In this document: positions 10,733-27,492 of the stretch, in pieces | Layout of the letters: each line of letters starts with the position of its first letter | Numbering within the stretch: the stretch's first letter is position 1 | Position numbers and translations under genes: made by a program | Notes under the pieces: model-generated | What the model saw: the letters and a program-made list of their open reading frames with translations, nothing else | Database searches by the model: none | What the model was told of the DNA's origin: nothing | From: Thermoplasmatota archaeon | Lineage (GTDB): Archaea > Thermoplasmatota > JAKEGO01 | NCBI GenBank assembly: GCA_028279595.1 | Contig: JANQNK010000003.1 | Coordinates: forward strand, 25,367 to 89,366 | Length of the DNA stretch: 64,000 bases | Reading direction: 5' to 3'

Positions 10733-10828
10733 GCCGGCGGCGAATGGAATAACACAACGCCTCCCTACGCCTACTCTACAATGCCAGTTATCTTAACGAA
10801 TGTGATGACTTGCTCAGACCTTAACATA

Positions 10829-11383
10829 TCATTTTGTAACAGCGTCCCACAGGACGTCGAAACTATCTTCCAATTCCTTTTCATTGATCTTCTTTCGTTT
10901 AGAAAATTCCATTATGAAGACCTGATGCAGTGTAAACAGAATATTACCGAACATTTCATACGAATATTCTTTCAGGGTACCCTTCTTCATTTCCTCTTCA
11001 TATGCAACCCGATATTTCTTCAGCATTGCTGCAGATGCCAATTGGCTCTCCTTTGAGATGTATTTGGAATTCAGAAAGAGGGTAAAGAAGAGGTTGTAAT
11101 CCATATTCTTCAAGGACCACTTGGTATATCCTATCCAGAATTTCTTCAGTTTCAATTCAAAATCATCTTCTTCAACGTAATATGAGTTCATATCTTCGAG
11201 CATATCATTTTTAATGTGCATATACGCTGCATTCATCAGGGCTTCCTTTGTCTTATAATGGTAGAATAGCGTTCCTGAGGCTACGCCCGATTCTCTGGTG
11301 ATTTGAGCTGTGGGGGTGTTCTCGAATCCTTGTTCGACGAATAGTCTGATCGCGGTTTCCAGGATTTTCTGTTTATTATTCAT
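10829..11383 (-). CDS. TetR/AcrR-family transcriptional regulator
   Basis: 184 aa. It has an N-terminal HTH (ILETAIRLFVEQGFENTPTAQITRESGVASGTLFYHYKTKEAL). The gene is AT-rich (~38% GC) and lies 36 bp downstream of the hydrolase gene, so it is probably in the same operon. Confidence 0.85.
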   Translation of the reverse strand: MNNKQKILETAIRLFVEQGFENTPTAQITRESGVASGTLFYHYKTKEALMNAAYMHIKNDMLEDMNSYYVEEDDFELKLKKFWIGYTKWSLKNMDYNLFFTLFLNSKYISKESQLASAAMLKKYRVAYEEEMKKGTLKEYSYEMFGNILFTLHQVFIMEFSKRKKINEKELEDSFDVLWDAVTK

Positions 11384-11419
11384 TCAAGCACTTCAACGAT
11401 TATCATTGATGTATTCCGT

Positions 11420-12316
11420 TTACTTCATATACTTATCGAACCAGCCAAGAATGGGTTTTGGATTGGTACCAATCCAGTCGTAAGCAGCCATTCGGTTGAA
11501 GTTGGCATTCTTCAACTTGGGAATCTCTATCCAGAGCATTTTCTTCTCTACCTTCAGGTCATTGTAATATGTGTTAACAAATTTCTCATCAAGGTAGCCA
11601 TCGTTCTTGTTCTGAATTACTAATGTTGGAATATTGATCGTCTTCACATTATGCATAAATGTATTTGTCGAGTAATCGATCCCTGTTCGGTTTTTGATCT
11701 TTTTATTAACACTTTTAATAAATAATTTAGGCAATGCCCCAGCTTGAATGAACGTCTGATAATCCAGGGGTTGGACAGATACCATGGCTTTCAGATTCTT
11801 GTACTCCCTCAAGCCATCTTCATCCCCGAAAGCATTGGTGGATGCAGCCTGTCCCATACAGATGCTAAATAACCCGATCTTGGCATTTTCATATTCCTTA
11901 TGGTTCGATATGAATTTTACAGCGGCGATGATATCTTTCCTTTCTTCAAGACCCCAGGTGACCCAGGGAATGGTCCCCAAACCACTATTCCCGTGTGCTC
12001 TGAAATCATACATTAGAACGGAATATCCAGAATCATTGAGGTATTTCGCCTGTCTTAGGAAATGTACATCCTTGTGGTATCCTTTAACCATTCCCTTTCC
12101 CTCAAGCGTATAACCTGATCTGCTGCATTGAATCCCGAAATGAGATTGTATTATTACTTTATCCTTGGCGCCTTTGATCAACCATCCTGAAAGTTTTACG
12201 CCATCCGAAGTATCAAATTTGACGTTCTCATAATCAAGACCATACTCCTTTGGATCATCGAACACTTGACCCTGATAAGGTTTAATCATCGCATCTGTCA
12301 GTAAATTCGCAATCAT
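11420..12316 (-). CDS. Alpha/beta-hydrolase-fold protein (dienelactone-hydrolase/BAAT-like)
   Basis: 298 aa. The motif YDFRAHGNSG with a following nucleophile elbow (CMGQAAS) resembles an alpha/beta hydrolase. The gene is AT-rich and sits in the island. Confidence 0.55.
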   Translation of the reverse strand: MIANLLTDAMIKPYQGQVFDDPKEYGLDYENVKFDTSDGVKLSGWLIKGAKDKVIIQSHFGIQCSRSGYTLEGKGMVKGYHKDVHFLRQAKYLNDSGYSVLMYDFRAHGNSGLGTIPWVTWGLEERKDIIAAVKFISNHKEYENAKIGLFSICMGQAASTNAFGDEDGLREYKNLKAMVSVQPLDYQTFIQAGALPKLFIKSVNKKIKNRTGIDYSTNTFMHNVKTINIPTLVIQNKNDGYLDEKFVNTYYNDLKVEKKMLWIEIPKLKNANFNRMAAYDWIGTNPKPILGWFDKYMK

Positions 12317-12349
12317 TTATTCACTTCCTGGAATCACATCTACAACTTA

Positions 12350-12375
12350 ACTGAGTACTCAGTCAGTATTTAAAC
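12350..12375 (-). promoter_or_regulatory. Perfect 14-bp palindrome ACTGAGTACTCAGT next to a TATTTAAA box; putative TetR operator and promoter of the hydrolase-TetR operon
   Basis: A perfect palindrome at 12350-12363 lies between the TATA-like box (12368-12374) and the ATG at 12316. Its arms GAGT/ACTC resemble the palindromes at 15740 and 19595. Confidence 0.45.
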
Positions 12376-12506
12376 TTTATCCATAACTCCTGCACTTTCT
12401 ACGTTGAGAACTGTAGTAATTTACCTCGCACGGTATATAGTCCGATAGAACCGAGCTGAAGTCCCCACACTCTATACCAGTTTCATTGATTCATGGTGCA
12501 GTTCGA

Positions 12507-13073
12507 TCACTTCTTGATCATATCCCACAAGGTAGGGAAGAACTTCTCAATCACCTTCGGGTCCTTGAGCTTCCTTGACGATAGGTAGAGTATGGTAAAA
12601 TTGACGTGTGACATTATCGCCTCCGATAGATAATCCATCGGGAGGTCCTTGATGAGTCCCTCGTCGACAGACCTTTGATAAATGTCTCCCATAAGGTCAA
12701 ATTCCGCAGAGAATTCATCCATTGTGAGCTTGGTGATATATGGCGATGACTTATACATCGCTAGAAATTTCATCTGATTCGGATTCTTTATCCCCCAGGC
12801 GATGCCGATATCCCAGAATGTTTTCACAGCCTCCTCGTTCAACAAGGAATCCTCGGTCAATTGCGGGAAAATGCCCATGAACTCCTGCTTCGTCCCGAGG
12901 TAGAGTTCATTGATCAGTGCCTCCTTGTTCTCGAAGTAGGAGAAGAGTGTCCCAGTACCGACGCCAGCGTCCTTTGTGATACTGGTTGTGGACGTATTGT
13001 CGAATCCTCTTGTCACGAAGAGCTTCAGTGCGCTCCTCATGATGGCATCCCTCTTATTCATCTTTTCACTCAT
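12507..13073 (-). CDS. TetR/AcrR-family transcriptional regulator (paralog of 18126-18716)
   Basis: 188 aa with the HTH AIMRSALKLFVTRGFDNTSTTSITKDAGVGTGTLFSYF. It is ~70-75% identical to the ORF at 18126-18716. It lies 13 bp downstream of the RND exporter gene. Confidence 0.85.
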   Translation of the reverse strand: MSEKMNKRDAIMRSALKLFVTRGFDNTSTTSITKDAGVGTGTLFSYFENKEALINELYLGTKQEFMGIFPQLTEDSLLNEEAVKTFWDIGIAWGIKNPNQMKFLAMYKSSPYITKLTMDEFSAEFDLMGDIYQRSVDEGLIKDLPMDYLSEAIMSHVNFTILYLSSRKLKDPKVIEKFFPTLWDMIKK

Positions 13074-13086
13074 TGTACCACTTAAC

Positions 13087-15702
13087 TCACTTATTGTATT
13101 TTTTTCTATTGCCCGACCTCTGCCTTCGAGATGAGGATCGAGTCCTAGCGATTTTCTTGCGAGCTAGCGGATGGATACGACGTCCCTTCGCAGTAGTCCT
13201 AGCCCATACGACCAGTATGCTTGGCTGTATGAACACCGAGGCCAGTAACGAATAGAGGATCATAAGAGCGGTCAGAGTGCCGAACTGCTGCATCATTCCC
13301 TGCGGGGATAGCGCAAGGATGCCAAAGCCTACCATCGTGGTCACAGCTGCGCCGAAGAGTGCTGTGCCGGTGTGGCTAACTGTAGTGATCACAGCCTTCT
13401 CTATTCTACCATGGTCCTCGAGCTCTTCCGTGAATCGGTGGGTAACATGAATTGCATAGGTCACTCCGAGACCGATGCTGAGTGATCCGATGAGAAGCGT
13501 CATTACATTCAGAGATATGTCGAGGAGGAACATGGTGCCATGGATCCATATGAGTACTAAAATGACCGGGAGTGTGGTGATGATCCCCAAGCTCTTCGAT
13601 TTTACCGAGTTCCAGAATACCAGGGAAAGTACTACAGAGGAAACGACCACAGTGATAATGATCGATGTCAGCATAGAATCATTGATCGCTCCGAGAACGA
13701 GGTTCATTATCACTGGTTCTCCAGTAAGTATCACCCTGTTCACGGTACTCTTCGACTCGAGTCTCTCCAAGGGCGCGGCGTCATCTTCAATGTACGAGAT
13801 TATTTCATCGGTCTTGGAATGTCCCTGTGAGTCTACCCTGATCCGGATCAAGGCGACAGTATATTTTCCGCTATCTTCATCGAAGTACAGGACATTGTCG
13901 AGTTCTCCTGGGTGGTTCTCTGTGATGTACTCGAATAGAACGCTAACATTCGAATCCGGAACATTGTCATCATCAAGATCCTCTGCTCGATACATGGCCT
14001 CGAAATCGGGATCGTAGAGGTCCCCATCGGATACGGTGGACACGTTGGCGAGGTCTCTCATGACCGTAAGCGGGGATTCCACACCATTCCCACCTTGAAA
14101 GAGTATTATCTCTCTATCATCGTTCTCGATGTTCGTATGTGTGGCATCCATGGCCTCGAGCACCTCCGTGGTTGCTACGTTTTCACCTTCGACATAGATG
14201 ATCACGGATTCCTCGGAGAAGTCGAACTCGGTCTGCATGTACTCGAACTCGTCTCTGACCTCGCTACCCTCAGGCAATCCTGCCTCGACGAAATTGAATG
14301 TTGTGGATACCATAGTTGCCAATACCAGCAATATCAGGGTTATTGCAGTCGCTGCCGTCAGTGTCCATTTGGGATGGGATCCCGCAATCTTCCCCCCAAA
14401 ACCCATTGCTTTCGTAAATCCAACCGAGATCGGATTTCTGGTACCGATACCGGAAGCCCTGTCCTTGTTAGACGGTGAGAGGAGATCTTTCCCCTTCTTA
14501 ACTCTGTATGTGTCAATAAGAACCCTACAGGCTGGAACGAAGGTGACGAACACGATATAGGCCGCTAGGATACCTACTGCGACCGTGATCCCGAACTCGC
14601 GGATTGGACCTATATCGGATGTTCCGTTCGATAGGAAACCGATCATACTGGTGAAGGCAGCGAGGAGGAGGGCTGCTCCGGCGGAGACAATGGAGATATC
14701 CGCAGCCTTTCTCACTGTATCACCTTGGGCGATCCGTTCCCTGTATCTCATAGTAAGATGTATGCTGTAGTCCACCCCAAGTCCGATCAGCAAGATGGGG
14801 ACTATGGTGGCAGCCTCGGATGTGTAACCCATGTATATCATGAAGCCTTGGATCCATATCAGAGAGAAAACCAGAGCGAGCAGGCCTATCATCAGATCGC
14901 TTATCGTGCGGAACGTGATCCATAGAACGACGATGATCATTCCAAATGCAATGGGGAACAAGGTGTTCATGGTATAATCCCAACCCTCTTCCATCGTATC
15001 GTTGATCTTCGTGTTCGTGAGCGCGAATGGCCGAACGGAGGAATATTTCCTCTCGGAGACCACCTTGTCAATTCTCCGCTCGATGCGCTCGATCCTATCA
15101 TCTCGATCTTCAGATGTCTCACCAGGCAATATTGTCTTATCAACAGTGACCATCATGAGTGCAGAACGATATTGGCCACCATTTTCTGAGGATGTCAGAA
15201 TATGAATTAATGCTCCAAGGTCAGGGATCTCCAGAGAATCGTTGAATACGCTCCTCAATTCGCTGTTGGTCATATTTCCGTATGATGAGACCAGTGATGA
15301 ATGGTTCCCAGCTTCAGGAAACGCTAGAGGTGCGAGGAGTCGGGGAAGGCTGATGATCCCATCCTGGGAAAGGTTTCCAGATATGACGTCATCCTCTCTC
15401 AATGAAGATTCTAGCTCGAGCATACCGATGAAACAATCAGTCGAAATGATGTCCAGATCCTTATCGGGGGAATTCTCGTGAACCAATACAATGACGTTGT
15501 GGCTCTGGCTGAATTTCTCATCGATATCATCCCTCGCGTCAACCGCCTCATCCCCAGGTATCCATGCATCTTCACCCTGCAAGTCGGCGGCGGGAACGGT
15601 CAAGATGATACCCATCATTATCATCGTGACCAGTACTACGGCCCCGATCGTCAATTCTGGTCTTCCTGTGACCATCTTGCTGACGTTTTTCAATATCTTC
15701 AT
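13087..15702 (-). CDS. RND-superfamily exporter (MMPL domain, COG1033-like)
   Basis: 871 aa. It has two 6-TM bundles, each preceded by a large extracytoplasmic loop, and the typical MMPL/SSD region ...GIGVDYSIHLTMRYRE... and ...GLGVTYAIHVTHRF.... The gene is AT-rich. Confidence 0.85.
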   Translation of the reverse strand: MKILKNVSKMVTGRPELTIGAVVLVTMIMMGIILTVPAADLQGEDAWIPGDEAVDARDDIDEKFSQSHNVIVLVHENSPDKDLDIISTDCFIGMLELESSLREDDVISGNLSQDGIISLPRLLAPLAFPEAGNHSSLVSSYGNMTNSELRSVFNDSLEIPDLGALIHILTSSENGGQYRSALMMVTVDKTILPGETSEDRDDRIERIERRIDKVVSERKYSSVRPFALTNTKINDTMEEGWDYTMNTLFPIAFGMIIVVLWITFRTISDLMIGLLALVFSLIWIQGFMIYMGYTSEAATIVPILLIGLGVDYSIHLTMRYRERIAQGDTVRKAADISIVSAGAALLLAAFTSMIGFLSNGTSDIGPIREFGITVAVGILAAYIVFVTFVPACRVLIDTYRVKKGKDLLSPSNKDRASGIGTRNPISVGFTKAMGFGGKIAGSHPKWTLTAATAITLILLVLATMVSTTFNFVEAGLPEGSEVRDEFEYMQTEFDFSEESVIIYVEGENVATTEVLEAMDATHTNIENDDREIILFQGGNGVESPLTVMRDLANVSTVSDGDLYDPDFEAMYRAEDLDDDNVPDSNVSVLFEYITENHPGELDNVLYFDEDSGKYTVALIRIRVDSQGHSKTDEIISYIEDDAAPLERLESKSTVNRVILTGEPVIMNLVLGAINDSMLTSIIITVVVSSVVLSLVFWNSVKSKSLGIITTLPVILVLIWIHGTMFLLDISLNVMTLLIGSLSIGLGVTYAIHVTHRFTEELEDHGRIEKAVITTVSHTGTALFGAAVTTMVGFGILALSPQGMMQQFGTLTALMILYSLLASVFIQPSILVVWARTTAKGRRIHPLARKKIARTRSSSRRQRSGNRKKYNK

Positions 15703-15735
15703 TCAGATCACCACGGTGACTGTTATTCATATCCA

Positions 15736-15806
15736 TTTCGAGTGACTAATCACTCAATAACATTGGGAGTATATATAATTATTGATTGAGCAGTCACTCA
15801 ATAATT
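15736..15806 (-). promoter_or_regulatory. Conserved operator/promoter element, copy 1: palindrome GAGTGA-CTAA-TCACTC (15740-15755), TATA box (15768-15782) and palindrome ATTGAG-CAGTCA-CTCAAT (15785-15802)
   Basis: It lies 40-100 bp upstream of the RND exporter start. It is ~80% identical over ~75 bp to the element at 19591-19660. Confidence 0.5.
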
Positions 15807-15868
15807 CGGGTCGTATCAAATCTGATGAATGATCTCAGCGATGTCCATTCGATCCAACGGGTCTTGCT

Positions 15869-16861
15869 CTATGGGACGTTGAGCCTTTCCAATCCGACTA
15901 TACCATAACTGGAATCGACCAGTTTGTTTGCCTTTTCAATATCCCGGGCATTTGGATTGGGGGATTCCATCGGCCAACCGCCTTTCTTACATTGCTTGTC
16001 CCTGTAGAGCACACTCTGTTGGCTGAAATAGGCTCCCGAATGCCTCGGTGCGTCATCAGAGAGCAGACAGTGAAGTGACGTCTGAGCGGACTCCTCGTTG
16101 CTGTTGGTCCAGAAGGGATAGATCGGTGCCATCAGCACCCTCATGATCGTCATCAACAGACCTTTGCCACCGAAGTTCGACCTCGCCCAACCCGGATGTA
16201 CGGAAGCCGTTGTTACACCGGTACCCTCGAGCCGATTGGCAAGTTCTAAAGCGTATAATACATTCGCGACCTTTGCCTCTCCATAAGCCGCGAAGTTTTT
16301 GAATTTCCTTGATTGATAGTTCAGGTCTTCAAGGTGGACATCATGCCTGTTCTTTGGGCTGCCTGCATGAACGACGGACGAAAGAATTACTATCCTCGAA
16401 GGAGCGCTCTTCTTCAATACATCAAGCAGCAGTTCCGTCAACAGGAAATGGCCGAAATAGCTGACCCCTATGGTCATCTCTAGGTCATCCTTCGTACGCT
16501 GGATCTCCCGACCCATCGTCACAAGCCCTGCATTGCATGCTAGACCGTCCAGTCTGTCATATTTCTTCAAGAATTCAGCGACGAAATCCCTCACCGATTG
16601 GAGGTCGGCAAGATCTATCCTCATCACATCATAACTCCCTTTCAGTCCCTTGAAGCTCTTGGCCACCTCCTCTCCCGCTTCCGTTCTCCTACATGCCATG
16701 ACCACATGTCCACCCTGCTTCACAAGCTGTCTTGTCGTCTCAAGACCTACTCCCGAATTGGCCCCGGTTACGATGTACACCTTTCCGCTCATATCTTTAG
16801 CGAGGGTCTTCTCATCGACCCATATGACATCCTTTCTACCCATTCTCATCACCACTTTCAT
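15869..16861 (-). CDS. Short-chain dehydrogenase/reductase (SDR; retinol-DH/WWOX-like)
   Basis: The TGANSGVG cofactor motif and the catalytic YxxxK region (YGEAKVANVLYALE) are present. The N-terminus overlaps the upstream LtrA stop, so the true start may be at an internal Met (16849/16843). Confidence 0.8.
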   Translation of the reverse strand: MKVVMRMGRKDVIWVDEKTLAKDMSGKVYIVTGANSGVGLETTRQLVKQGGHVVMACRRTEAGEEVAKSFKGLKGSYDVMRIDLADLQSVRDFVAEFLKKYDRLDGLACNAGLVTMGREIQRTKDDLEMTIGVSYFGHFLLTELLLDVLKKSAPSRIVILSSVVHAGSPKNRHDVHLEDLNYQSRKFKNFAAYGEAKVANVLYALELANRLEGTGVTTASVHPGWARSNFGGKGLLMTIMRVLMAPIYPFWTNSNEESAQTSLHCLLSDDAPRHSGAYFSQQSVLYRDKQCKKGGWPMESPNPNARDIEKANKLVDSSYGIVGLERLNVP

Positions 16862-18125
16862 TTCTCCGATTGACAGTCAATTCATCCATTTCTTCTGGGA
16901 TCAGGCCTCTCATCCAAGTCATCATTGCCGCGATTATTGGTAGGAAGAGAAGTACGTTGGTGATTACGAGTATTTGGGTCGCCCCCAGGTCCAGAAGGCC
17001 GAAGGGGAGCAGCAGGATTGCCGCGATGGGTAATACCTTCCTGCCCACAGCCAACGGTCGTTCGAATTCTCTAGCTATCTGCAGGGTCTTGACCAAAAGA
17101 GCGATCGATACAAGAACAATGGAAAGGGATACGATTATCGACCAACGCACCCCATCGGGAAGATGGTCTCCCTCGTGTTCTATCATGTAAAGGATCGAGG
17201 CTCCGATGACGGTTATCCCTGCGGTCATTGGGAGATGGAGGTAGAACCATCTCATCGTGTTTGACATCCCCGGGCGGGGCAGTCGACTAGAGACCGTGTC
17301 GAAGTATGTCCACCAGATACCGACCGCCAAAAGGGTACCAAGCATCACCTTGGTGCCGAGCTCCCACGTGATATCATGGTGATCTGCAGCTCCGCTGACA
17401 ACGCTGAACACTATCTCTCCGAGGACGATGATGGTTAGGAGACCAAACCTTTCACTCAGTGAAGGGCTGACACTTGAACCGATCTCGAGCTGTTTCCGGG
17501 CTTCAGGATTCCTCCGACCGATCGCAATGAGCATGGTCGGAAGTATGAGGGAAAGGACGAAAGCGAGAGCCCAGAGATAGAACCGGGCCGGTGGTGCAAT
17601 GAAGATCGAACCCGCGAACAGGACGGTATTGAGTAGGAATACCGCTGAATACGGACCCGACAATGGACGGTGATCCGGGTCATGTACTCCCGTCCTCCAC
17701 CAGAGGAACGTCAGGATGAGCTGGAAACCGGCGTAGGAAAGGGCGAATCCCCGCGACGTATCACCCATGGCATCGTGCGCGAAGATCGCCATCATCACGA
17801 CAGTTGCCATCTGGAGGAAGGTGAAGACCCTCGTCCGGATGTCGTCGTTACCATGTACATCGTGGTACAGGGATCCGTTCAACCACGCCCACCAGACTAA
17901 GACGAACAGGAAGGAGAACTCACCGATGCCTACCCAGGTTATGTGGTGAACCAGCGCATGGGAGAGTTGAGCGATGAGTGCCACGTAGACGAGGTCGTAG
18001 AACAGTTCGAGGAACGTCACTGTTCGATGCTCGGGACGATCCCCTGCCCTTCTTGGTGGTTGCCACCAATGATGTAAGGTCCTAGGACGGGTCCTCATAC
18101 GCCGATGTCCCCCCTGTCGATCCAT
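16836..18125 (-). CDS. Low-temperature-requirement A (LtrA)-family integral membrane protein
   Basis: 429 aa and polytopic. The N-terminal motif VTFLELFYDLVYVALIAQLSH...WWAWLNGSLYHDVHG is characteristic of bacterial LtrA (PF06772). Confidence 0.65.
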   Translation of the reverse strand: MDRQGGHRRMRTRPRTLHHWWQPPRRAGDRPEHRTVTFLELFYDLVYVALIAQLSHALVHHITWVGIGEFSFLFVLVWWAWLNGSLYHDVHGNDDIRTRVFTFLQMATVVMMAIFAHDAMGDTSRGFALSYAGFQLILTFLWWRTGVHDPDHRPLSGPYSAVFLLNTVLFAGSIFIAPPARFYLWALAFVLSLILPTMLIAIGRRNPEARKQLEIGSSVSPSLSERFGLLTIIVLGEIVFSVVSGAADHHDITWELGTKVMLGTLLAVGIWWTYFDTVSSRLPRPGMSNTMRWFYLHLPMTAGITVIGASILYMIEHEGDHLPDGVRWSIIVSLSIVLVSIALLVKTLQIAREFERPLAVGRKVLPIAAILLLPFGLLDLGATQILVITNVLLFLPIIAAMMTWMRGLIPEEMDELTVNRRNESGDENG

Positions 18126-18716
18126 TCACTTCCGGATCATATCCCATCCGGTCGGAAAGAGATCCTCTATGACCTTCGGGTCCTTGATCTTCCTGGATGT
18201 GAGATAGAGTATCGTGGCATACATGTGAGAGGTCGTTGCCTCCATCAGGTAGTCGATGGGCAGGTCCTTTATCAGACCCTCCTCGATCGATCTTTGATAC
18301 AGGTCTCCCAGTAACTCCATTTCATCGGCGATCTCGGATTGCGTGAGCTTGGTGATGTAAGGTGAGGACTTGTACATCACGATGAACTTCATCTTGTCAG
18401 GATTCCTGATCCCCCAGTTGATGCCCAGGTCCCAGAACGTTCTGACGACCTCCTCGGTCAGTAGGGTATCGTCCGACAACGGCGGGAAGATTCCCATGAA
18501 CTCCTTCTTGGTCTCAAGATAGAGCTCGTTGATGAGCGCTTCCTTGCTGTCGAAGTAGTTGAACAGCGTCCCTGTCCCCACCCCGGCATTCTTGCTTATG
18601 TTGGCCGTGGACGTGTTGTCGAAGCCCTTGGTCGTGAAGAGCTTCAATGCGCTCCTCATGATCGCTTCCCTTTTGTCCTTTGGCTTACTCATCGCTACCG
18701 TATCCTCCTGAACCAT
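18126..18716 (-). CDS. TetR/AcrR-family transcriptional regulator (paralog of 12507-13073)
   Basis: 196 aa with the HTH EAIMRSALKLFTTKGFDNTSTANISKNAGVGTGTLFNYF. Its stop abuts the LtrA start. Confidence 0.85.
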   Translation of the reverse strand: MVQEDTVAMSKPKDKREAIMRSALKLFTTKGFDNTSTANISKNAGVGTGTLFNYFDSKEALINELYLETKKEFMGIFPPLSDDTLLTEEVVRTFWDLGINWGIRNPDKMKFIVMYKSSPYITKLTQSEIADEMELLGDLYQRSIEEGLIKDLPIDYLMEATTSHMYATILYLTSRKIKDPKVIEDLFPTGWDMIRK

Positions 18717-18750
18717 TTATTACTTGCTCCATACTCGAACATCCTGAGCT

Positions 18751-19575
18751 TCACCTGAAGGCCCGCCGGATCATCCGGTCGTATCCTCGGTCGCCAAAGA
18801 GCCTTCTCATCCAGATCATCGTCCTTGCCATCTGGCCCTTGACATATCTGGTCTTTGGTTTCCTCACGGTCGCAGCCTTAGCGATCGTCTCTCCAAGAAC
18901 CTCCGGATCGGTACCCATCGTTTGCATCCTCGGGCTGTCCATTAACTTGAGGTATGGATCAATCTGACCTTTGTATGCATTTCCATTATCGTACTTTTTC
19001 AACTGTTCTCCGACGACAGCACCAAAGTTCGTCCTTATCGCTCCCGGCTCGATGACCACTACGTCGATACCGAACTCCTTGACCTCGATCCGCAGGCAGT
19101 CAGAGAATCCCTCGATCGCGTGCTTGGTGGCATGGTACCACGCGCCAAGCGGCGTATAGATCTTGCCTCCCATCGAGGATATATTCACTATCCTTCCGGA
19201 CTTCTGCCTCCTCATGTGGGGAAGCACCATCTGGGTCAGCTCGACGAGGCCGAAGTAGTTCACATCGAACTGGTATCTACCATCCTCCATGGGAACGAGT
19301 TCCACGGGACCGTAGAGGCCGAAGCCGGCGTTGTTTATCAGTATGTCGATTCGACGGTCCTTTTCAAGGATCATATCCACCGCTCGCCTGTTGTCTTCGG
19401 TCTTTGAAACGTCCATGCCTATTGGTACGATCCCGAATCTCTTCAGGTCCTCCATCTTGTCGACGCTTCTCGCTCCTGCGTAAACCTTGTGTCCCTGTTT
19501 CGCGAGGATTTTGGCAGCTTCCTTCCCCATTCCGGAGGAGGCTCCCGTAATCAACACAATCTTCTTTTCCATCAT
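18751..19575 (-). CDS. SDR-family oxidoreductase (classical)
   Basis: 274 aa with TGASSGMG, NNAG and YHATKHA (YxxxK) motifs. Confidence 0.85.
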   Translation of the reverse strand: MMEKKIVLITGASSGMGKEAAKILAKQGHKVYAGARSVDKMEDLKRFGIVPIGMDVSKTEDNRRAVDMILEKDRRIDILINNAGFGLYGPVELVPMEDGRYQFDVNYFGLVELTQMVLPHMRRQKSGRIVNISSMGGKIYTPLGAWYHATKHAIEGFSDCLRIEVKEFGIDVVVIEPGAIRTNFGAVVGEQLKKYDNGNAYKGQIDPYLKLMDSPRMQTMGTDPEVLGETIAKAATVRKPKTRYVKGQMARTMIWMRRLFGDRGYDRMIRRAFR

Positions 19576-19590
19576 TTCCTCAACCTCCTT

Positions 19591-19660
19591 ATTGATTGAC
19601 TAATCAGTCATGTATGGGCTAGTATATATAGTTATTGATTGAATAGTCAGTCAACAATTT
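19591..19660 (-). promoter_or_regulatory. Conserved operator/promoter element, copy 2 (TGATTGACTAATCAGTCA palindrome, AGTATATATAG TATA box, ATTGATTGAATAGTCAGTCAACAAT)
   Basis: It lies 20-85 bp upstream of the SDR gene start (19575). It is ~80% identical to copy 1. Confidence 0.5.
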
Positions 19661-19726
19661 GTATAGGTACTGGCTCCCTATCAACCATAGAAAAATACTT
19701 GTAAATTGTCCTGAAATTCGCTTCAC

Positions 19727-21235
19727 TCAAGTATGTCGCCGCTTTCTCCGGTCGACTGCGATGAAGAGTGTTATGATCGCCAAGGCCACCGGCAGGATAG
19801 GCAGTTCAGGAACCTTCTGAGGTGCGCTGTTCTCGGTGTAGTTAATCAATGGATATCGATCCTCCGCACCTGCACTTCCATCGATAGAATATTCGGTCTC
19901 TCCGATGCCATCTCCGTTGCTGTCCGTTCCGTTATAATCTGACCAGTAGTTACCGTGGGTCCCGTTGTCCCAGGTGTTCTTACTGTTGTTGTCGTACCCT
20001 TGCGAGGTGCTCTCACCATTGCTGAGGAAGTTGTTGTGATGGATGACATTATCATAGCTGTCGGCGATGACGCAACCGTAGTCGGTATTGTTGAAGATCT
20101 CATTGTAAGAGACGGTGTTGTTGTTCGAGAAATCATCCAGATCGATCCCATGGATACCGTTCGAATTAACTGTATTGTTACCAATGTCGTTCCTGTAAGA
20201 TGAATCAGAATAGATCCCAGTTTCGTTGTTTGAGCTCACGATGTTATGTAGAAAAATATTGTTCCCGCCCTGATTGATATGGATGCCGTCACCGCTGTTC
20301 ATGCACACAGTGTTGTTCGAGACGTTGTTTCTGAATGCTTCGTAGAAGTATATCCCATACTCACCGTTGGAAATCGCGTTGTTATTACTTATTGAGTTGG
20401 GACCAAAAATGTATCTTAAGTATATTCCATATCGACCGTTCGAGGTCAAATCGTTATCTTTGATGATATTATTGTCACTTGATCTGCTGTAATTCGTTTT
20501 CACACTAAAAGTAGAAATGAGCTTGATACCCAGGTCAGAATTCGCACTTGCATTATTGTCCTTTATTGTGTTGTATGTCGAGGCATCGAGGTATATACCA
20601 AAATAATTTGAACTGACACTATTGTTCTCGATCACAGTGGTGTTGCTGTCGCGTTTAAGATAGATTCCAACATTATTGTGGGTAACGACATTGTTGGAAA
20701 TCGAATTGTTGTTCGAGCCCTTTTGGAAGATACCCGAATCAGTGTTCGAACCGATCAGATTGTACTCAACGGTATTGAAATTGCTCGAGGAGTTCAGGAA
20801 GATGCCATCTCCGCCGTTCCAGCTGATGTTACAATTGACGATCGTGCAGTTCTCTACAGAGGTTAGTAGGATGCCAGAATCAAGGTAGGCTGATCCTGAT
20901 CCAGTAATTTGAAGATGAGATAAATTGACATTATCCGCAGTTATGTTGAGCGTGATCCCACTACCAGTCGCATTTACTATGGTGTTCGAGGAACCATTCC
21001 CGATCAGTGAAAGACTCTTGTTCACAAGAACGTTCTCGAGATACGTCCCATTGAACACGTAGATCGTGTCCCCGTCCGATGATGCGTTAATAGCGTCCTG
21101 TATCGAAGAATGATCGGCCCAACCACCATCATCATCGACGGTAAAGGTCTCTGCTTTGATAGTTGGAAGCGCTTGAAGTGCTATCACGAGGACCATCATC
21201 GTGATCAGCAACCTGGCAATGAATTCCGTCGCCAT
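19727..21235 (-). CDS. Secreted right-handed beta-helix (NosD/PbH1 repeat) protein with a C-terminal TM and basic anchor
   Basis: 502 aa. There is an N-terminal signal peptide. The module TFTVDDDGGWADHSSIQDAINASSDGDTIYVFNGTYLENV is homologous to the N-terminus of the 2028-aa ORF. It has many N-x-S/T sequons and parallel beta-helix repeats. The C-terminus is PILPVALAIITLFIAVDRRKRRHT. The gene is AT-rich. Confidence 0.7.
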   Translation of the reverse strand: MATEFIARLLITMMVLVIALQALPTIKAETFTVDDDGGWADHSSIQDAINASSDGDTIYVFNGTYLENVLVNKSLSLIGNGSSNTIVNATGSGITLNITADNVNLSHLQITGSGSAYLDSGILLTSVENCTIVNCNISWNGGDGIFLNSSSNFNTVEYNLIGSNTDSGIFQKGSNNNSISNNVVTHNNVGIYLKRDSNTTVIENNSVSSNYFGIYLDASTYNTIKDNNASANSDLGIKLISTFSVKTNYSRSSDNNIIKDNDLTSNGRYGIYLRYIFGPNSISNNNAISNGEYGIYFYEAFRNNVSNNTVCMNSGDGIHINQGGNNIFLHNIVSSNNETGIYSDSSYRNDIGNNTVNSNGIHGIDLDDFSNNNTVSYNEIFNNTDYGCVIADSYDNVIHHNNFLSNGESTSQGYDNNSKNTWDNGTHGNYWSDYNGTDSNGDGIGETEYSIDGSAGAEDRYPLINYTENSAPQKVPELPILPVALAIITLFIAVDRRKRRHT

Positions 21236-21405
21236 ATGAATCCCGAACCTGGGTATGGATTTCGCTTAGTTAACAATGTCCATTTGGCCATTGAACCAGT
21301 CAATTTCACAAATAGCTGTATAATTATCTAAACATGGTTATATGACGGAAATCCGGTGATAACCCCACCAAGCATTATAAACGTCAACGAACGATATCGG
21401 AGACT

Positions 21406-24400
21406 ATGCGAGCCGTTGCAGTCGACCGCGCGCTCTGTATATGTATGTGTTTTGGGATCGTTCTCCTATTCCTGGGAACCGTCACAGCGGTTACCCGTAT
21501 AGTGGACGATGACGGTGGTGGATGGGCCGACTTCACGACTGTCCAGGACGCTGTCGACGCGTCCAGCAATGGCGATAGGATCCGTATCTTTACTGGCACA
21601 TACGTCGAGAACGTCGATGTCGATGTTCCAGTAACGATCATCGGGAACGGAACGGGTGCAGTCACCATCGATGGTGACGGGTCCGGCGACTCACTCCTGC
21701 TTTCCGCCGACTGGATCAATGTCAGCGGTCTGCGGACGTCACAGGCGGATGGATACCCGAACGCCGGCATACACATCACGGGTGACAACTGCAACGTGTC
21801 CGGCGTATTGACCCGCGACAACTATTTCGGTATATTCATCGACGGCGCAACCGATTGCGCCATCCACTCCTGCGAGGTCAGGGACAACTATGGCAGCGGG
21901 ATCCACCTCCAGGAGAGTCATGGCAACACGATCTGGGGCAATACCATCGTGGATAACAATCTCGTTACACCCTCGGACGCTGACCTTATCGGCGAATGGT
22001 CCATGGACGAAGCCTCATGGACAGGGACCCCCGATGAGGTCACTGATACTTCCGGCTCGGACCTGCACGGAACCTCGTCCGGCGGAGTGGACACCTCGGC
22101 GACATCGATAGCCGGCCGGTCCGGCCGGTTCGATGGCTCCGACGACCTGGTCACTGTGGGCGACGATCCGGCCCTCGACATCACCACGGAGATGACCCTG
22201 GAGGCCTGGATGTACGCCGAAGGTGATGTCGCATCCGGGGATATCCATTTCCCTTACTTCGAGTTCGACTACTCGAGCTCTGCCTATCCCGACATCCTGC
22301 ATCTCGATGGTAGACTATATGCCGTTCTCTACACGGGTCCAGGGTCGGATGGCTTCGTCAGGACCCTGTGGCTGTCCGACAACGGTGTCATCGAGGTCGC
22401 TGACAGCTACGAGTTCGACAACTCCTATGGCGGTTATCCCTCTGCGGTGAAGGTCACCGATGGGATCATCGCCGTGGCCTATCAGGGGCCCGGGAACGAT
22501 GGGTTCCTCGCGACCATCGGCTACTCTTCGGACGGTACGATAACGACCCCCGTCATCAATTCAGTCGAATTCCACACCTCCGACGGCAGAACGCCCGACA
22601 TCATCCACGTATCGGGCGACGTCTACGCGATCGCGTTCAGAGGACCCGGTTCCGACGGCTTCATAATCACCTACGAGATCGCCTCGGACGGGACCATAAC
22701 CACGCCTGCCATCGACCAGTACGAGTACGACACCTCCAGCGGTGAGTACCCTGACATGGTCCATGTGGCGGGTGACGTCTTCGCGGTGGTCTATCAGGGT
22801 GCCAGCGACGACGGATTCGTCAGGACCATCGAGATCGCGAGCGACGGGACGATCACAACGCCTTACATCGACTCCTACGAGTTCGATACCACTTATACGG
22901 GACTTCCCCGGATCGTCCAAGTGTCGGGAGATACGTTCGCGGTCACCCACAGGTCGTCCTCCCTCCAGGGATACCTGAGGACACTGGACATCGCTTCGAA
23001 CGGGACGATCTCAGGCCAGCTCGACTCCCTCGTGTTCGACAGCAACATGTGTTACGCTCCAGTGCCCATTCACATGACCGGGGATATCTTCGCGGTCGTC
23101 TACAGGGGGCCCGGCGACGATGGTTGGACCGTTACCCTAGATATCCCGTCGAACGGGGACCTCTCCGCCGGACTTACCGACAGGTTCGAGTTCGAACCGT
23201 CCACCGCCATCTATGGTGAACCGATCCGACTGGCGGACGGCATGGTCGCGGTCGCGTTCCGCGGTCCTGGTTCCGACGGCTTCATCAGTACGTTCGCAAT
23301 CGACGGGAGCGGGACCATGTCCGGTCACAGGGCGGTCCTCGAAGCCTCGAGCGCATACGAATCGAGCGCCGTTCACGTCAGCGGAGAGGTCTACGCGGTA
23401 GCATTCCGCGGTGCCTTCTCCACTGGACGTCTGGTGACTGTGACGATAGCCGACAATGGCACGATGGGAGCCGTGGTCGACACCGTCTTCTTCCAGGACG
23501 AATACGCGGTGAATCCGAACCTCATCCACATCTCCGGTACCACGTACGCCATCGCCCACACCGGACCGGGGAACCTGGGCGACCTGATCACCATCGACAT
23601 CGCAGCGGACGGGAACATCGGTGCCAGTCCACTGGACTCATACAGGTTCGACACCTCCTACTGCTACAAGCCGGACCTCCTCCACGTCTCCGGGGACATA
23701 TACGCCGTCGCCTACGAGGGGCGGAGCAGCGACGGATACGTCAGGACCCTGGAGATCGCATCCAACGGCACGATCGCACAATCTGCGGTGGACTCCTACG
23801 AGTTCCACACCTCGAACGGCAGGGACCCATCGATAGCCCATGTCTCCGGAGACGTCTACATCCTTGCGTTCAGGTCGGGCGGCAACGACGGTTTCGTCAG
23901 GACCTTCGACATGGCGTCCGACGGGAACATCGGAGGGACCATCGACACCTACGAGTTCGACACCTCCAACGGTTACGACCCTGACATCATCCACATCGCT
24001 GGAGATACATATGCCGTGGCCTACCAGGGATCTGGATCGGACGGCTTCATTCGGACGATCGAGGTGGAGACCGATGGTGACATCGATACTCCCTACAACG
24101 ACAGCCTGGAATACGACACATCGGCCGGCAGGACGCCGGACATCTTCCGGATCGACGGAGATACCTTCGGGATCGCCTACAGGGGCTCCAGCGACGACGG
24201 GTTCGTCCGGACCATGGACATCGCGGTCGATGGGTCGATCAGTGCGGTCGTAGATACCCTCGAGTTCGACACGAGCGACGGAGGCGAGCCCTGCGTTCTC
24301 ATGCTTTCCAGCGGGGTCTACGCAGCCTTCTACAGGGGCGGCGACATCGACGGCAAGGTAGCCTCGATGGACATATCGGATGCGGGAGCCGTGGGCGGGG

Positions 24401-27400
24401 TCATCGACACCCTGGCCTTCGAGGCGGACTCCATGAGGATGCCCAGGTTCATCCACATTTCCGGTGACGTCTACGCCATTGCCTACACCGGTGCGAACTC
24501 GGCCGGATTCGTATCGACGATCACCATGGACAGTGACGGAAAGGTATCCTCGGGTCCCATCGACAGATTGATGTTCGAGGCTGGGACCTGCTACGAGCCG
24601 TCCATTGTTCATGTTTCTGGAGACCATTTCGCAATCGCATACCGCGGACCCGACAACGACGGATTCGTGACTACCGTCGAGATATCCACTGATGGTTCCA
24701 TCCCGGGGATGGACGACGTCCTCGAGTTCACGACCGCCGAATGCTACGAGCCATCCATTGTCCACGTGTCCGGCGAATACTTCGCGGTCGCCTTCCGCGG
24801 GAACGGCAACGACGGCTTCATCGTGACCCTCGAGATCTCATCGACAGGAATGATCCTCAGTACCGTGGACATCCTCGAGTTCGACACCGTCGACGGCTAC
24901 TGGCCGGACATCGTCCATGTCGCCGGCGACACCTTCGCCGTAGCCGCACGGGGCCAGGGCGGGGACGGCTTCGTCACCACGGTCGGTATCGCCACCGATG
25001 GGACCATCAGCGGCGTCATCGATGCCCTCGAGTTCGATACATCGGAGTGCAATTACCCCGATCTGTTCCACGTCACAGCGAACCTCTTTGCGGTTGCATA
25101 CCGGGGGTCGGGGAACGACGGTTTCATCCGCTCGTTCACGATCTATCCGAACGGGACCCTGGGGCCGACATTGGACACCTTCGAGTTCGATACGTCGGAG
25201 TGCGCCCACCCCGAGGTCGTACTGATGTCGGGATCCCTGTTCGCGATAGCATATCAGGGTTCAGGATCCGATGGTTTCGTGACCACCATCATGATCTCCT
25301 CGGATGGCGCCATCAGCGACCCATATCTCGACAGGTTCGAGTTCGACGTGTCAGAGGGAAGGGAACCGTGCATCGTCAGACTGTCATCCTCGAACTTCGC
25401 CGTGGCATACCGCGGGTCATACATGGTCGGCTACGTGATCTCCGGCGGGCTCATCGACCTTACAGGCATCAAGGGCATCACCAAATCGGAGGCATACGGG
25501 ATCCATACCGATACCGGACTCGCCTACTGCACACTGAACGGAAACACACTGAGCGGACCCGTCGTACCCGGATGGAACCATGTCGCGATGACCTACGACA
25601 GGACGGCGCTATCGGACCAGCACAGGCTCTACATAAACGGTATCCTGGTCGACACAGCGAACGGGAACGACCCGATCGACACCAACTCCGCCGACCTGAG
25701 GATGGGAGACAGTTTCTGGGGATACATCGACGAGGTTAGGCTGCACGACGCGGCGCTCGACCCGGACGTCCTCAGGGCGGACGTTTCCGCCGGTATCCAT
25801 CTCTGGCTTTCGGAGAACAATACGATCGCCTTCAACGACATCGACGGCAATCGGTTCGGTATCCGCTCCGAGGGGTCGTGGAACGAGGTCGTCAGGAACA
25901 ACAACATCACCTCCAACACCTACTCGGGAATACTGTATACCAGGGATTGCGGCGACAACTCGGTCCTGTACAACATCATAGACGGGAATGGTGACGGGAT
26001 CGTCGTCAACGGAACCGGCAACGTCAATGCGACCCGTAACTACTGGGGATCGCCGGGCGGCCCCTCGGGGTCCGGTCCAGGATCGGGCGACAGCGTCAGC
26101 GGCAATGTGGACTACGGCCCATGGTATGCGACGGTGACGACCACTCCTTCGCGGGAATTCCACAACCTTTCGAAGGGATCCACGGACATCGCACTCTCCG
26201 ACTCCATTTCAGGGGTCATGTCCGCTGCGGAAGCTGGGGACGTCCTCACGATAGGAGCTGGTACGTTCTCCGAGAACATCGTCATCAGCGTATCGATGAC
26301 GGTGAGGGGCGGGGGATCCACAGTGTCAACGATATCCCCGGCAGCAGGCGACACCGTAACGGTATCAGCAGCAAATGTCAGAATAGACAACCTCACCCTC
26401 TCCGGGTCCGGAGACACGATTGTCGCCGGAAGCCAACCGGGGCTCGTCATCAGGGATTCGGTCATCACCTCGACCGGCGGGTTCGCGGTCAATGTCACCG
26501 GAGCCCAGGACGTGAATGCCAGCTACAACCACTGGGGGACCATCTCGCAGTCCGTCATCGAGAGCGGCATTTACGATTCCAATGACAATCCTGTGCTCGG
26601 GACCGTATCCATTGCGCCCTGGTACAATGCGGCCATGGACACGCTCTTCACTCCGGACGGAGACCCGCCGACGACCTCGATGACCATCGGAGACCCGAAC
26701 TTCGGGACCGATCCGATCCTCGTCCTGCCGACCACCAGGTTCACCCTCACCGCCGACGATGGTGCGGGAAGCGGAGTGAACATCACGGTCTACCATCTTG
26801 ACGGCGGCGCACCGGTCACATACACGAATCCCTTCGCTGTCGCAGCCCTCGGCGACCATACGATCGGGTATTACTCGATCGACCTCCTCGGGAACGTCGA
26901 GGCCGTCCACACGTTGAACATCACGGTCGACGACACGGTGCCCTCATCGATCTATCCCGATCTTCAACTATCGATCGCCACCACTCCTGAATACGTCACG
27001 CTAATAGACAGGAACATAACCGTCATCGCAGGAGTGTACAACTATGGCAACTTCACACGGACGGGCGACTACACCTACACCGATCCCGAGACCGGGGGCG
27101 TCGTCTCGGCGACGACAGACGACATCTTCATCATCTTCGAGTACAGCGACGACGGAGCGGTATGGACGGAGTTCGCATACAGACGTATCGATTCCTCTGA
27201 TGTCAGGCCCGGAGGGACCGGCGTCGGAATGGCGAACCACATGGTGACCTCAGACGACCGGTTGGAGTTCCGGGCAACGATCTGGTACGAGCCCAATGAC
27301 GCCACAGGGCAGTACGAACCGACGAACGCGCTCGGAGCCCGGATCCATCCTGATACCGAGGATGTCAATGTCGCGCTGATCGCAGAGAAGACCCAGACAG

Positions 27401-27492
27401 GCACCTCGTTCATGCCCGGGACAGCAGCCCTTGCCGTGGCGGCCGTCGCTGCCTCTGCAGTGATATGTCATGTCAGAAAGGATGAGGACTGA
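21406..27492 (+). CDS. Giant (2028 aa) surface protein: NosD-like beta-helix, a LamG jelly-roll split by ~22 tandem 47-aa repeats, more beta-helix, and a PGF-CTERM-like tail
   Basis: It has a signal peptide. The first LamG_3 half is at ~21976-22250 (GEWSMDEASWTGTPDEVTDTSGSDLHGTSSGG...LEAWMYAEGD). The second half is at ~25486-25770 (WNHVAMTYDRTALSDQHRLYINGILVD...GYIDEVRLHDAALDPDVL). The repeat consensus is YEFDTSxGxxPDIIHVSGDxYAVAYRGxGxDGFVRTxxIASDGTIxxxxIDS. The C-terminus MPGTAALAVAAVAASAVICHVRKDED has a P-G-T motif, a TM helix and basic residues. Confidence 0.75.
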   Translation: MRAVAVDRALCICMCFGIVLLFLGTVTAVTRIVDDDGGGWADFTTVQDAVDASSNGDRIRIFTGTYVENVDVDVPVTIIGNGTGAVTIDGDGSGDSLLLSADWINVSGLRTSQADGYPNAGIHITGDNCNVSGVLTRDNYFGIFIDGATDCAIHSCEVRDNYGSGIHLQESHGNTIWGNTIVDNNLVTPSDADLIGEWSMDEASWTGTPDEVTDTSGSDLHGTSSGGVDTSATSIAGRSGRFDGSDDLVTVGDDPALDITTEMTLEAWMYAEGDVASGDIHFPYFEFDYSSSAYPDILHLDGRLYAVLYTGPGSDGFVRTLWLSDNGVIEVADSYEFDNSYGGYPSAVKVTDGIIAVAYQGPGNDGFLATIGYSSDGTITTPVINSVEFHTSDGRTPDIIHVSGDVYAIAFRGPGSDGFIITYEIASDGTITTPAIDQYEYDTSSGEYPDMVHVAGDVFAVVYQGASDDGFVRTIEIASDGTITTPYIDSYEFDTTYTGLPRIVQVSGDTFAVTHRSSSLQGYLRTLDIASNGTISGQLDSLVFDSNMCYAPVPIHMTGDIFAVVYRGPGDDGWTVTLDIPSNGDLSAGLTDRFEFEPSTAIYGEPIRLADGMVAVAFRGPGSDGFISTFAIDGSGTMSGHRAVLEASSAYESSAVHVSGEVYAVAFRGAFSTGRLVTVTIADNGTMGAVVDTVFFQDEYAVNPNLIHISGTTYAIAHTGPGNLGDLITIDIAADGNIGASPLDSYRFDTSYCYKPDLLHVSGDIYAVAYEGRSSDGYVRTLEIASNGTIAQSAVDSYEFHTSNGRDPSIAHVSGDVYILAFRSGGNDGFVRTFDMASDGNIGGTIDTYEFDTSNGYDPDIIHIAGDTYAVAYQGSGSDGFIRTIEVETDGDIDTPYNDSLEYDTSAGRTPDIFRIDGDTFGIAYRGSSDDGFVRTMDIAVDGSISAVVDTLEFDTSDGGEPCVLMLSSGVYAAFYRGGDIDGKVASMDISDAGAVGGVIDTLAFEADSMRMPRFIHISGDVYAIAYTGANSAGFVSTITMDSDGKVSSGPIDRLMFEAGTCYEPSIVHVSGDHFAIAYRGPDNDGFVTTVEISTDGSIPGMDDVLEFTTAECYEPSIVHVSGEYFAVAFRGNGNDGFIVTLEISSTGMILSTVDILEFDTVDGYWPDIVHVAGDTFAVAARGQGGDGFVTTVGIATDGTISGVIDALEFDTSECNYPDLFHVTANLFAVAYRGSGNDGFIRSFTIYPNGTLGPTLDTFEFDTSECAHPEVVLMSGSLFAIAYQGSGSDGFVTTIMISSDGAISDPYLDRFEFDVSEGREPCIVRLSSSNFAVAYRGSYMVGYVISGGLIDLTGIKGITKSEAYGIHTDTGLAYCTLNGNTLSGPVVPGWNHVAMTYDRTALSDQHRLYINGILVDTANGNDPIDTNSADLRMGDSFWGYIDEVRLHDAALDPDVLRADVSAGIHLWLSENNTIAFNDIDGNRFGIRSEGSWNEVVRNNNITSNTYSGILYTRDCGDNSVLYNIIDGNGDGIVVNGTGNVNATRNYWGSPGGPSGSGPGSGDSVSGNVDYGPWYATVTTTPSREFHNLSKGSTDIALSDSISGVMSAAEAGDVLTIGAGTFSENIVISVSMTVRGGGSTVSTISPAAGDTVTVSAANVRIDNLTLSGSGDTIVAGSQPGLVIRDSVITSTGGFAVNVTGAQDVNASYNHWGTISQSVIESGIYDSNDNPVLGTVSIAPWYNAAMDTLFTPDGDPPTTSMTIGDPNFGTDPILVLPTTRFTLTADDGAGSGVNITVYHLDGGAPVTYTNPFAVAALGDHTIGYYSIDLLGNVEAVHTLNITVDDTVPSSIYPDLQLSIATTPEYVTLIDRNITVIAGVYNYGNFTRTGDYTYTDPETGGVVSATTDDIFIIFEYSDDGAVWTEFAYRRIDSSDVRPGGTGVGMANHMVTSDDRLEFRATIWYEPNDATGQYEPTNALGARIHPDTEDVNVALIAEKTQTGTSFMPGTAALAVAAVAASAVICHVRKDED

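Follow-up and report, generated by a model that had tools for sequence, protein, structure and literature searches.

In a 64,000-nucleotide (nt) stretch of DNA from a Thermoplasmatota archaeon (assembly GCA_028279595.1, contig JANQNK010000003.1, positions 25,367 to 89,366 of the forward strand; hereafter, the window), one open reading frame (ORF) encodes a large protein carrying 21 tandem copies of a repeat that, within the limits of HMMER-level searches, appears to represent an unnamed sequence family. The units are predicted to be blades of beta-propellers, most likely three seven-bladed ones in succession, and the whole array is predicted to be inserted into a LamG jelly-roll domain, itself likely nested in a beta-helix. 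The best overall explanation, to which we assign a probability of about 65%, is that the product is a surface-anchored protein whose three LamG-nested propellers act as adhesin heads on a beta-helix stalk. Propellers as a fold, and adhesins that present a propeller on a pilus or a surface stalk, are known in general terms, and the finding extends this existing knowledge. What the domain libraries and literature searched did not contain, and what is new as far as these go, is the family as a sequence family, its occurrence as a LamG-nested cassette, and the range of uncultured archaea, bacteria, and viruses that carry it.

The repeat unit and its family status

Splitting the translation at the recurring motif [FY]A[IV]A[YF][RQ]G gave 21 consecutive units of 49-52 residues (amino acids (aa) 284-1360, nt 22255-25485), all of which lie in frame +1 of the single ORF 21406-27492. 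A six-frame scan of the 64 kb with the unit profile likewise detected exactly 21 units on the + strand (nt 22258-25482) and none elsewhere in any frame. An initial annotation, made from the sequence alone, had already placed a tandem repeat here; its end point, 25441, agrees with that of the last unit, which is truncated behind strand four as the LamG sequence takes over again at about aa 1346 (nt 25443). The copy number of about 22 and the period of 47 residues (141 nt) given at that time needed revision. The profile scan counts 21 copies, and the maxima of the identity autocorrelation (51-52, 102-103, and 154 aa) give a period of ~51 aa or ~153 nt; the consensus in the initial annotation is itself 52 residues long. 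Its motif pattern was correct and matches the consensus built from the units, xxEFDTSxxxxPxxxHVSGDxxAVAYRGxGxDGFVxTxxIxxDGxIxxxxD, in which one Gly is invariant across the units and P12, A23, G28, and G44 are almost so. Even-numbered units, held out from a profile built on the odd-numbered ones, scored 52-82 bits against it (E 1e-16 to 1e-25), whereas among 200 shuffled units the highest score was 7.3 bits.

The units share on average 39% of their residues and 53% of their nucleotides in pairwise comparison, and the third codon positions are 43% identical, compared with 38% expected from composition. Because the third positions are thus near chance, the duplication is considered ancient, and a recent amplification of the units was ruled out on the same ground, as the initial annotation had held from the divergence of the DNA copies. 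Indeed, Tandem Repeats Finder run at a low threshold did not find a tandem array in the DNA, so that the repeat exists at the protein level only. The most diverged units are 7, 8, 9, 14, 15, and 21.

The family status was examined by HMMER-level searches of Pfam-A (2025 copy), NCBIfam 20.0, and the PDB sequences. With the 1061-aa array, no Pfam-A family was matched at E up to 1, and NCBIfam returned only a spurious FhuB fragment. Pfam-A searches with 36 further members of the family (seven homologues, 23 stand-alone propellers, and six more) gave nothing genuine, only scattered weak fragments of a different, unrelated family in each protein, and most of these matches had no single stretch passing by itself. 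Among the fragment labels falling inside propellers were DUF3471, DUF6679, DUF2844, NdhO, Colipase_C, EccE, TTC3_9th, Allantoicase, and CheB_methylest. Precomputed Pfam labels likewise lie inside the propellers of P0009, P0010, P0069, P0077, P0110, and other homologues, a few of them above the gathering score. We treat such labels as noise summed over the repeats, which would mislead automatic annotation. Moreover, no propeller was matched in the PDB sequences with a single sequence, with the blade profile, or with the whole-module profile; in particular, chains of the PLL lectin family, whose fold is compared below, were retrieved neither by hmmsearch with the repeat and module profiles at E up to 10 nor by phmmer.

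The named propeller families (WD40, Kelch, PQQ, YVTN/LVIVD, NHL, TolB, FG-GAP, VCBS, RCC1, Tachylectin, and others) gave no significant profile match. In one homologue, P0101, true LVIVD repeats (aa 579-617 and others) form a separate module beside the blade repeat (aa 1015-1377). Thus, HMMER searches with the repeat and with the seven-unit module led to no named propeller or beta-sandwich family, and the PLL lectins resemble the module in fold only (~11% identity), so that the description of the repeat as unnamed, also put forward in the initial annotation, stands at the level of Pfam-A, NCBIfam, and PDB sequences.

Predicted propellers and their nested scaffold

The array was modeled with AlphaFold2 (aa 275-1370, 35 aligned sequences) at a mean predicted local distance difference test score (pLDDT) of 75, most 10-residue blocks of units 10-21 averaging >90. 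A more confident model was obtained for P0081, a 727-aa homologue with one 7-unit block (mean pLDDT, 81.5; predicted template-modeling score (pTM), 0.74), in which block means are 85-98 across the propeller, the C-terminal part of LamG, and the latter half of its N-terminal part. In these AlphaFold2 models, DSSP assigned four strands to each unit, that is, 28 strands to seven units. Both predicted models were used as Foldseek queries against solved structures. For the P0081 module, 19 of the 20 top PDB matches were PLL, PLL2-5, and PHL of Photorhabdus and CV39L of Chromobacterium, all seven-bladed lectins (probability 1.0; E 3e-11 to 2e-9; target-normalized TM score, 0.64-0.77; identity, 9-14%; root-mean-square deviation (rmsd) of the best match, 4.1 Å). 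For the window array, the best matches were the triple-propeller proteins DDB1, Trm734, SF3B130, and CPSF160, also at a probability of 1.0.

The copy numbers in relatives bear on how the units are grouped. Among 120 homologues, 42 have 7 units, 54 have 14, and two have 21, and in a larger representative library the same profile detects 7, 14, 21, 28, and 49 copies, as well as stand-alone 7-unit proteins of ~380 aa. P0121 has 49 units (7x7) in 2690 aa, and the large arrays of P0123, P0124, P0129, and P0230 gave counts of 28, 25, 26, and 24 detected units; no genuine Pfam family was found in P0121 or P0125. From the four strands per unit, the copy numbers in sevens, and the Foldseek matches to solved propellers, the 21 units are predicted with good support to be propeller blades of ~51 residues with four antiparallel strands each, as the initial annotation had proposed from their length and periodicity. 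A ring closes with seven units, and the array therefore most likely comprises three seven-bladed propellers (units 1-7, 8-14, and 15-21), and the diverged units fall at the ring edges, as expected. A single 21-blade ring was ruled out, since the homologue counts come in sevens.

The sequences flanking the array form another domain. When the 98 residues before and the 110 residues after it were spliced, they matched positions 1-148 of the 151 of PF13385 (E 6.4e-18), whereas each flank alone matched only its own part of the profile. Because a nearly full-length match is obtained only upon splicing, the array (~1,060 residues) is predicted, with good support, to be inserted into a loop of the LamG jelly-roll after about profile position 33, a feature that the initial annotation had missed. 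Thus, the flanks correspond to the two halves of a Laminin_G_3 (PF13385) LamG domain like those of surface proteins, which differs from an ordinary LamG in being split by this long insertion. Both halves surround the array in 57 of the 120 homologues, and LamG with inserted propellers therefore seems to be a conserved supermodule, of which no description was found in the domain libraries or papers searched.

The LamG domain is in turn bracketed by NosD-like helix stretches (aa 47-185 and aa 1450-1545), and the spliced helix gave one TIGR03805 stretch across the junction, though a weak one (E 4e-4). A divergently transcribed neighboring paralogue on the - strand (19727-21235; 502 aa, without the cassette) is 37% identical to the window protein over aa 5-188, including the signal segment, and shows the scaffold uninterrupted. 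A nested layout, in which a beta-helix contains the LamG domain and the latter contains the three propellers, is therefore likely from the sequence comparisons.

The hydropathy scan revealed only two hydrophobic segments, one at each terminus. Because these terminal segments are combined with partners of extracellular type (the NosD beta-helix and an OmpL47 barrel), there is a strong case that the window protein is secreted and anchored at the cell surface by its C-terminus. A class III (pilin) signal, Pilin_N (PF07790) or N_methyl (PF07963), was not matched in the window protein, the N-terminus of which aligns with that of the NosD-like paralogue. The C-terminal tail (...SFMPGTAALAVAAVAASAVICHVRKDED) consists of a short motif, a hydrophobic helix, and a charged tail, an archaeosortase-type layout; in its last 54 residues, no NCBIfam sorting-signal model (PGF-CTERM/archaeosortase-type) was matched at E up to 10. 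The tail could represent a sorting signal of an unclassified type, or no more than an anchor in the membrane.

Carriers of the repeat and proposed role in surface recognition

The representative library comprised 1.84 billion sequences (clusters at 50% identity), in which the blade profile matched 1,832 clusters at E up to 1e-3 and 1,384 at E up to 1e-10. Species-representative genomes were searched with a hand-made degenerate DNA pattern for YA[IV]AYxGxGxDG[FY], which yielded 84 stretches, all those listed belonging to metagenome-assembled or single-cell genomes; a search of the genome collection with the window protein itself confirmed no relative. The carriers listed for the pattern are Thermoplasmatota, Woesearchaeota, Bathyarchaeia, Aenigmatarchaeota, and Nitrosopelagicus among the archaea, and Dehalococcoidia and other Chloroflexota, Patescibacteria, Omnitrophota, Desulfobacterales, Nitrospirota, and Gammaproteobacteria among the bacteria. 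Every named source seen was an uncultured archaeon, bacterium, or virus, and tblastn searches of cultured-phage and plasmid records gave no match.

Most of the proteins that carry the repeat are archaeal pilins (Pilin_N; N-termini of the AVSEIIG type) or bacterial prepilins (N_methyl; GFTLIEM), and PKD or He_PIG domains are frequent in them. On a Thermoplasmatales chromosome, the gene for a 14-blade pilin directly follows two T2SSE ATPase and two T2SSF platform genes, and on a bacterial contig a prepilin with a C-terminal propeller adjoins T2SSF, an MshE-type T2SSE, and a secretin. The propeller is also encoded by eight viral contigs in IMG/VR. At L091:5001-6734 and L095:5001-6626, it constitutes the N-terminal ~370 aa of viral proteins of 541-577 aa, the C-terminal parts of which weakly match phrog_6977 'minor tail protein' (E 1e-6 and 1e-5); at L095, the gene lies near those for a major head protein (phrog_212) and a tail protein (phrog_807).

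Several further forms were observed. P0138 and 22 others (~380 aa; alignment A4) consist of the propeller only, without a signal peptide, and share a conserved N-terminus, MAEGDIGAVID, and a conserved C-terminal tail, IET...HxLLMGIG. Stand-alone propellers of this kind (L088:6001-7140) are encoded amid many short ORFs for which no Pfam family is on record and a ParB gene, surroundings that resemble those of a virus or a mobile element. Besides the window protein, a single homologue in the first search, P0001, had 21 units; its gene is followed by L090:5981-11484, which encodes a protein of >1934 aa with DUF2341 and Laminin_G_3, so that two giant surface proteins lie in tandem.

We infer from this family context that the window protein has a role in adhesion, the repeat being most likely a multivalent surface-recognition module, possibly lectin-like. 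The beta-helix stalk would project the propellers outward from the cell, and these would serve at its distal end as multivalent heads for ligand recognition. With the same residues conserved in all blades, a propeller may offer up to seven equivalent, low-affinity sites, giving ~21 per molecule, and binding would be achieved by avidity. The ligand would most likely be a surface glycan or another repeated surface structure on a different cell or particle, glycan specificity being the weakest step of this proposal. A role in recognition is suggested because the same module sits on pili and on likely phage tail proteins, whose distal parts recognize external surfaces, because the closest solved folds are multivalent lectins with inter-blade sites, and because propeller-bearing pilins (PilX2 and PilY1) have already been tied to attachment. 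PLL-family lectins bind sugars in sites between the blades (PMC6943638), and a seven-bladed propeller on a pilin mediates host binding in Saccharibacteria, with PilY1 as a known precedent (PMC11623550).

Comparison with these systems reveals both likeness and difference. PLL, PLL2-5, PHL, and CV39L, the best structural matches in the PDB, likewise consist of seven blades of ~50 residues with four strands each, and their repeated, equivalent inter-blade sites provide multivalent sugar binding (PMC6943638), the mechanism proposed here for the window repeat. Their pockets between adjacent blades contain Trp residues engaged in CH-pi stacking (PMC6943638), whereas the window repeat has no conserved Trp. 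Moreover, the PLL lectins are free-standing proteins of ~370 aa, some of them oligomeric; in contrast, the window repeat occurs as a LamG-nested cassette in arrays of 7, 14, 21, or more blades, and is borne by pilins, by likely phage tail proteins, or by a beta-helix stalk. PilY1 of Pseudomonas and PilX2 of Saccharibacteria (TM7x) carry, as do the pilin-type homologues, a heptabladed propeller on a pilin-like or pilus-associated protein implicated in attachment (PMC11623550). The window protein itself, however, is not a pilin, and its type of propeller is usually nested in LamG; the PilX2 propeller is built of RCC1 repeats and that of PilY1 belongs to another family, neither Pfam model matching the window repeat. 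Three consecutive seven-bladed propellers per chain, as proposed for the window array, are known from DDB1, SF3B130, CPSF160, and Trm734, although these are eukaryotic, intracellular WD40-like scaffolds with ~10% identity and a TM score of only ~0.2 to the window model, the latter because the propellers may be arranged differently relative to one another. By analogy, the module would work like a multivalent lectin of PLL type or an adhesin head of PilY1/PilX2 type, yet it lies outside those families by the features tested.

Several observations weigh against an adhesin with three multivalent propeller heads. The similarity to the PLL lectins is at the level of fold (9-14% identity in structural alignments, with no HMMER-level link), and a conserved Trp, looked for in the repeat columns, was absent, with one W among the 21 units. 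Rather than forming ligand sites, the polar residues that are conserved (E, D, T, H, S, D, R, D) could be engaged in a network of structural hydrogen bonds of the WD40-like kind. The window protein, unlike most carriers, is not a pilin, and its neighbors in the window (SDRs, TetR, LtrA, MMPL, a hydrolase, and TldD/PmbA) give no functional hint. Finally, propeller 1 and the boundary of units 7/8/9 were poorly modeled (pLDDT <50). The model is weak around units 5-9 and has a pTM of 0.45, and the 7+7+7 partition and the mutual arrangement of the propellers therefore rest mainly on the copy counts of the homologues.

Some of these observations would also fit a structural or protein-protein platform with no role in glycan binding, such as an envelope or S-layer scaffold, a docking platform, or a spacer. 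Beta-propellers serve generically as scaffolds for interactions, DDB1, SF3B130, and CPSF160 among the triple-propeller matches are platforms on which proteins dock, the conserved polar residues may be purely structural, and a conserved sugar-site signature is missing. We nevertheless regard this reading as unlikely, since the repeat recurs in pilins beside pilus machinery and at the N-terminal end of viral proteins that weakly match a tail protein, and is embedded in a lectin-type LamG fold; the pilin, viral, and LamG contexts all point to recognition of external targets. It overlaps with the adhesin explanation if the external target is a protein. Another reading, in which the repeat is a very divergent PLL/PHL 'bangle lectin', strictly speaking a lectin for fucose or O-methyl sugars, and no new family is involved, has the same blade length (~50 aa) and blade number (seven) in its favor, together with the 19 of 20 top Foldseek ranks filled by PLL2, PLL4, PHL, PLL5, PLL3, PLL, and CV39L. 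It is rendered improbable by the failure of the repeat and module profiles to detect PLL-family chains in the PDB sequences even at E 10, by the 9-14% identity of the structural alignments, by the lack in every repeat column of the Trp of the PLL sugar sites, and by an rmsd of 4-13 Å, large for true members, as the PLL members superpose mutually at 0.6-0.7 Å (PMC6943638).

An enzymatic propeller (a glycoside hydrolase, a lyase, or a sialidase-like protein) acting together with the beta-helix on a surface polysaccharide might be suspected, because NosD/pectate-lyase-like beta-helices and LamG domains often accompany carbohydrate-active enzymes and because the NanA sialidase appears low in the Foldseek list of the 7-unit module. 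However, catalytic propellers build one asymmetric site from different blades, whereas here all blades keep the same residues; arrays of 2-7 propellers of identical type fit avidity and not catalysis, and the Pfam-A and NCBIfam scans gave no match to an enzyme family, all of which makes an enzyme very improbable. Scarcely credible, lastly, is a beta-solenoid or a string of small beta-sandwich modules in place of propellers. The name of one NCBI homologue, 'beta strand repeat-containing protein', and the weakness of the model around units 5-9 might suggest such a structure, but the copy numbers are multiples of seven across >100 proteins, the 7-unit model is confident, and solved seven-bladed propellers match it at a probability of 1.0.

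Beyond the preferred explanation of a surface-anchored adhesin, one might tentatively go further and regard the LamG jelly-roll with one to several inserted seven-bladed propellers as an undescribed receptor-recognition module that moves across domains of life and is displayed interchangeably on type IV pili, phage tails, and anchored beta-helix stalks, possibly a new lectin/adhesin family having a ligand specificity of its own. The module would then be shared by Thermoplasmatota, DPANN-type lineages, Bathyarchaeia, and ammonia oxidizers, by Patescibacteria, Dehalococcoidia, Omnitrophota, and Desulfobacterales, and by their viruses. If so, it could underlie cell-cell attachment, including episymbiosis, and virus-host recognition in the carrier lineages.

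To our knowledge, hardly any surface recognition protein has been characterized from uncultured archaea, Patescibacteria, or Dehalococcoidia. The repeat is a compact and easily recognized domain that the libraries leave blank or mislabel with spurious fragments, and a name for it would allow better annotation of the many proteins now labeled 'hypothetical', 'LamG-like', or 'type IV pilin'. It provides a specific candidate for the adhesin head of pili, archaeal as well as bacterial, and of likely phage tail proteins, and the likely nesting of three propellers in LamG and of LamG in a beta-helix is a tidy example of domain-in-domain insertion.

Feature coordinates and genomic surroundings

The coordinates of the ORF, the domains of its product, and the paralogue are compiled in Table 1.

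Table 1 Predicted domain layout of the 21-unit repeat protein and position of its paralogue in the window
Feature	Position (nt)	Strand	Basis
ORF, 2028 aa, holding the whole feature	21406..27492	+	ORF translation
N-terminal hydrophobic segment (~aa 8-29), putative Sec signal peptide or signal anchor	21427..21492	+	hydropathy
NosD-like right-handed beta-helix, first part (aa 30-190)	21493..21975	+	Pfam/NCBIfam; 37% identity to ORF 19727-21235(-)
LamG/concanavalin-like jelly-roll, N-terminal half (aa 194-283)	21985..22254	+	PF13385 when spliced
Units 1-7 (aa 284-641), putative propeller 1	22255..23328	+	profile, homologue counts, model
Units 8-14 (aa 642-1001), putative propeller 2	23329..24408	+	profile, homologue counts, model
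Units 15-21 (aa 1002-1346), putative propeller 3	24409..25443	+	profile; 10-residue pLDDT blocks mostly >90
LamG jelly-roll, C-terminal half (aa 1347-1454)	25444..25767	+	PF13385 when spliced
Beta-helix, resumed (aa 1455-1560)	25768..26085	+	NosD and Beta_helix Pfam matches at aa 1450-1545
Second NosD-like beta-helix segment (aa 1600-1740)	26203..26625	+	BLASTP to paralogue: aa 1600-1734, 28%, E 2e-8
OmpL47-type beta-barrel (Ig-like) domain (aa 1777-1841)	26734..26928	+	NF047446, E 2.2e-16
C-terminal hydrophobic helix and charged tail (PGTAALAVAAVAASAVICHVRKDED), putative membrane anchor or sorting signal	27415..27489	+	hydropathy
502-aa, divergently transcribed paralogue of the beta-helix stalk, without the LamG-propeller cassette	19727..21235	-	BLASTP; GC 39-47%

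The window carries split RpoA'/A'' genes, an archaeal arrangement; among named RpoA'' sequences, those of Thermoplasmata metagenome-assembled genomes are the closest, with an identity of at most 68%. An operon-based function for the repeat protein was ruled out, the neighbors being unrelated housekeeping or efflux genes. Upstream of the main ORF, positions 10000-21400 (especially 19600-21400) have a guanine-plus-cytosine (GC) content of 39-52%, as against ~60% for the genome; that of the main ORF is 56-64%. This low-GC stretch contains TetR regulators, an MMPL transporter, two SDRs, LtrA, and the NosD-like paralogue, and could have been acquired as an island; neither an integrase nor a flanking tRNA was seen, the tRNAs lying at 7983-8245.

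Elsewhere in the window, a 1089-aa ORF (44139-47408, - strand) matched no Pfam family at E up to 1e-3. A 1761-aa ORF (58514-63799, - strand) encodes an Lhr-type helicase (DEAD, Helicase_C, WH_Lhr, DEAD_assoc) with winged-helix domains and a C-terminal AlkZ-like DNA glycosylase region. A 686-aa ORF (5607-7667, + strand) that lies immediately downstream from the RNA polymerase genes gave only weak Ig-like matches (FixG_C, Ig_VWA7, and HYDIN-type Ig), and its product is possibly another surface protein.

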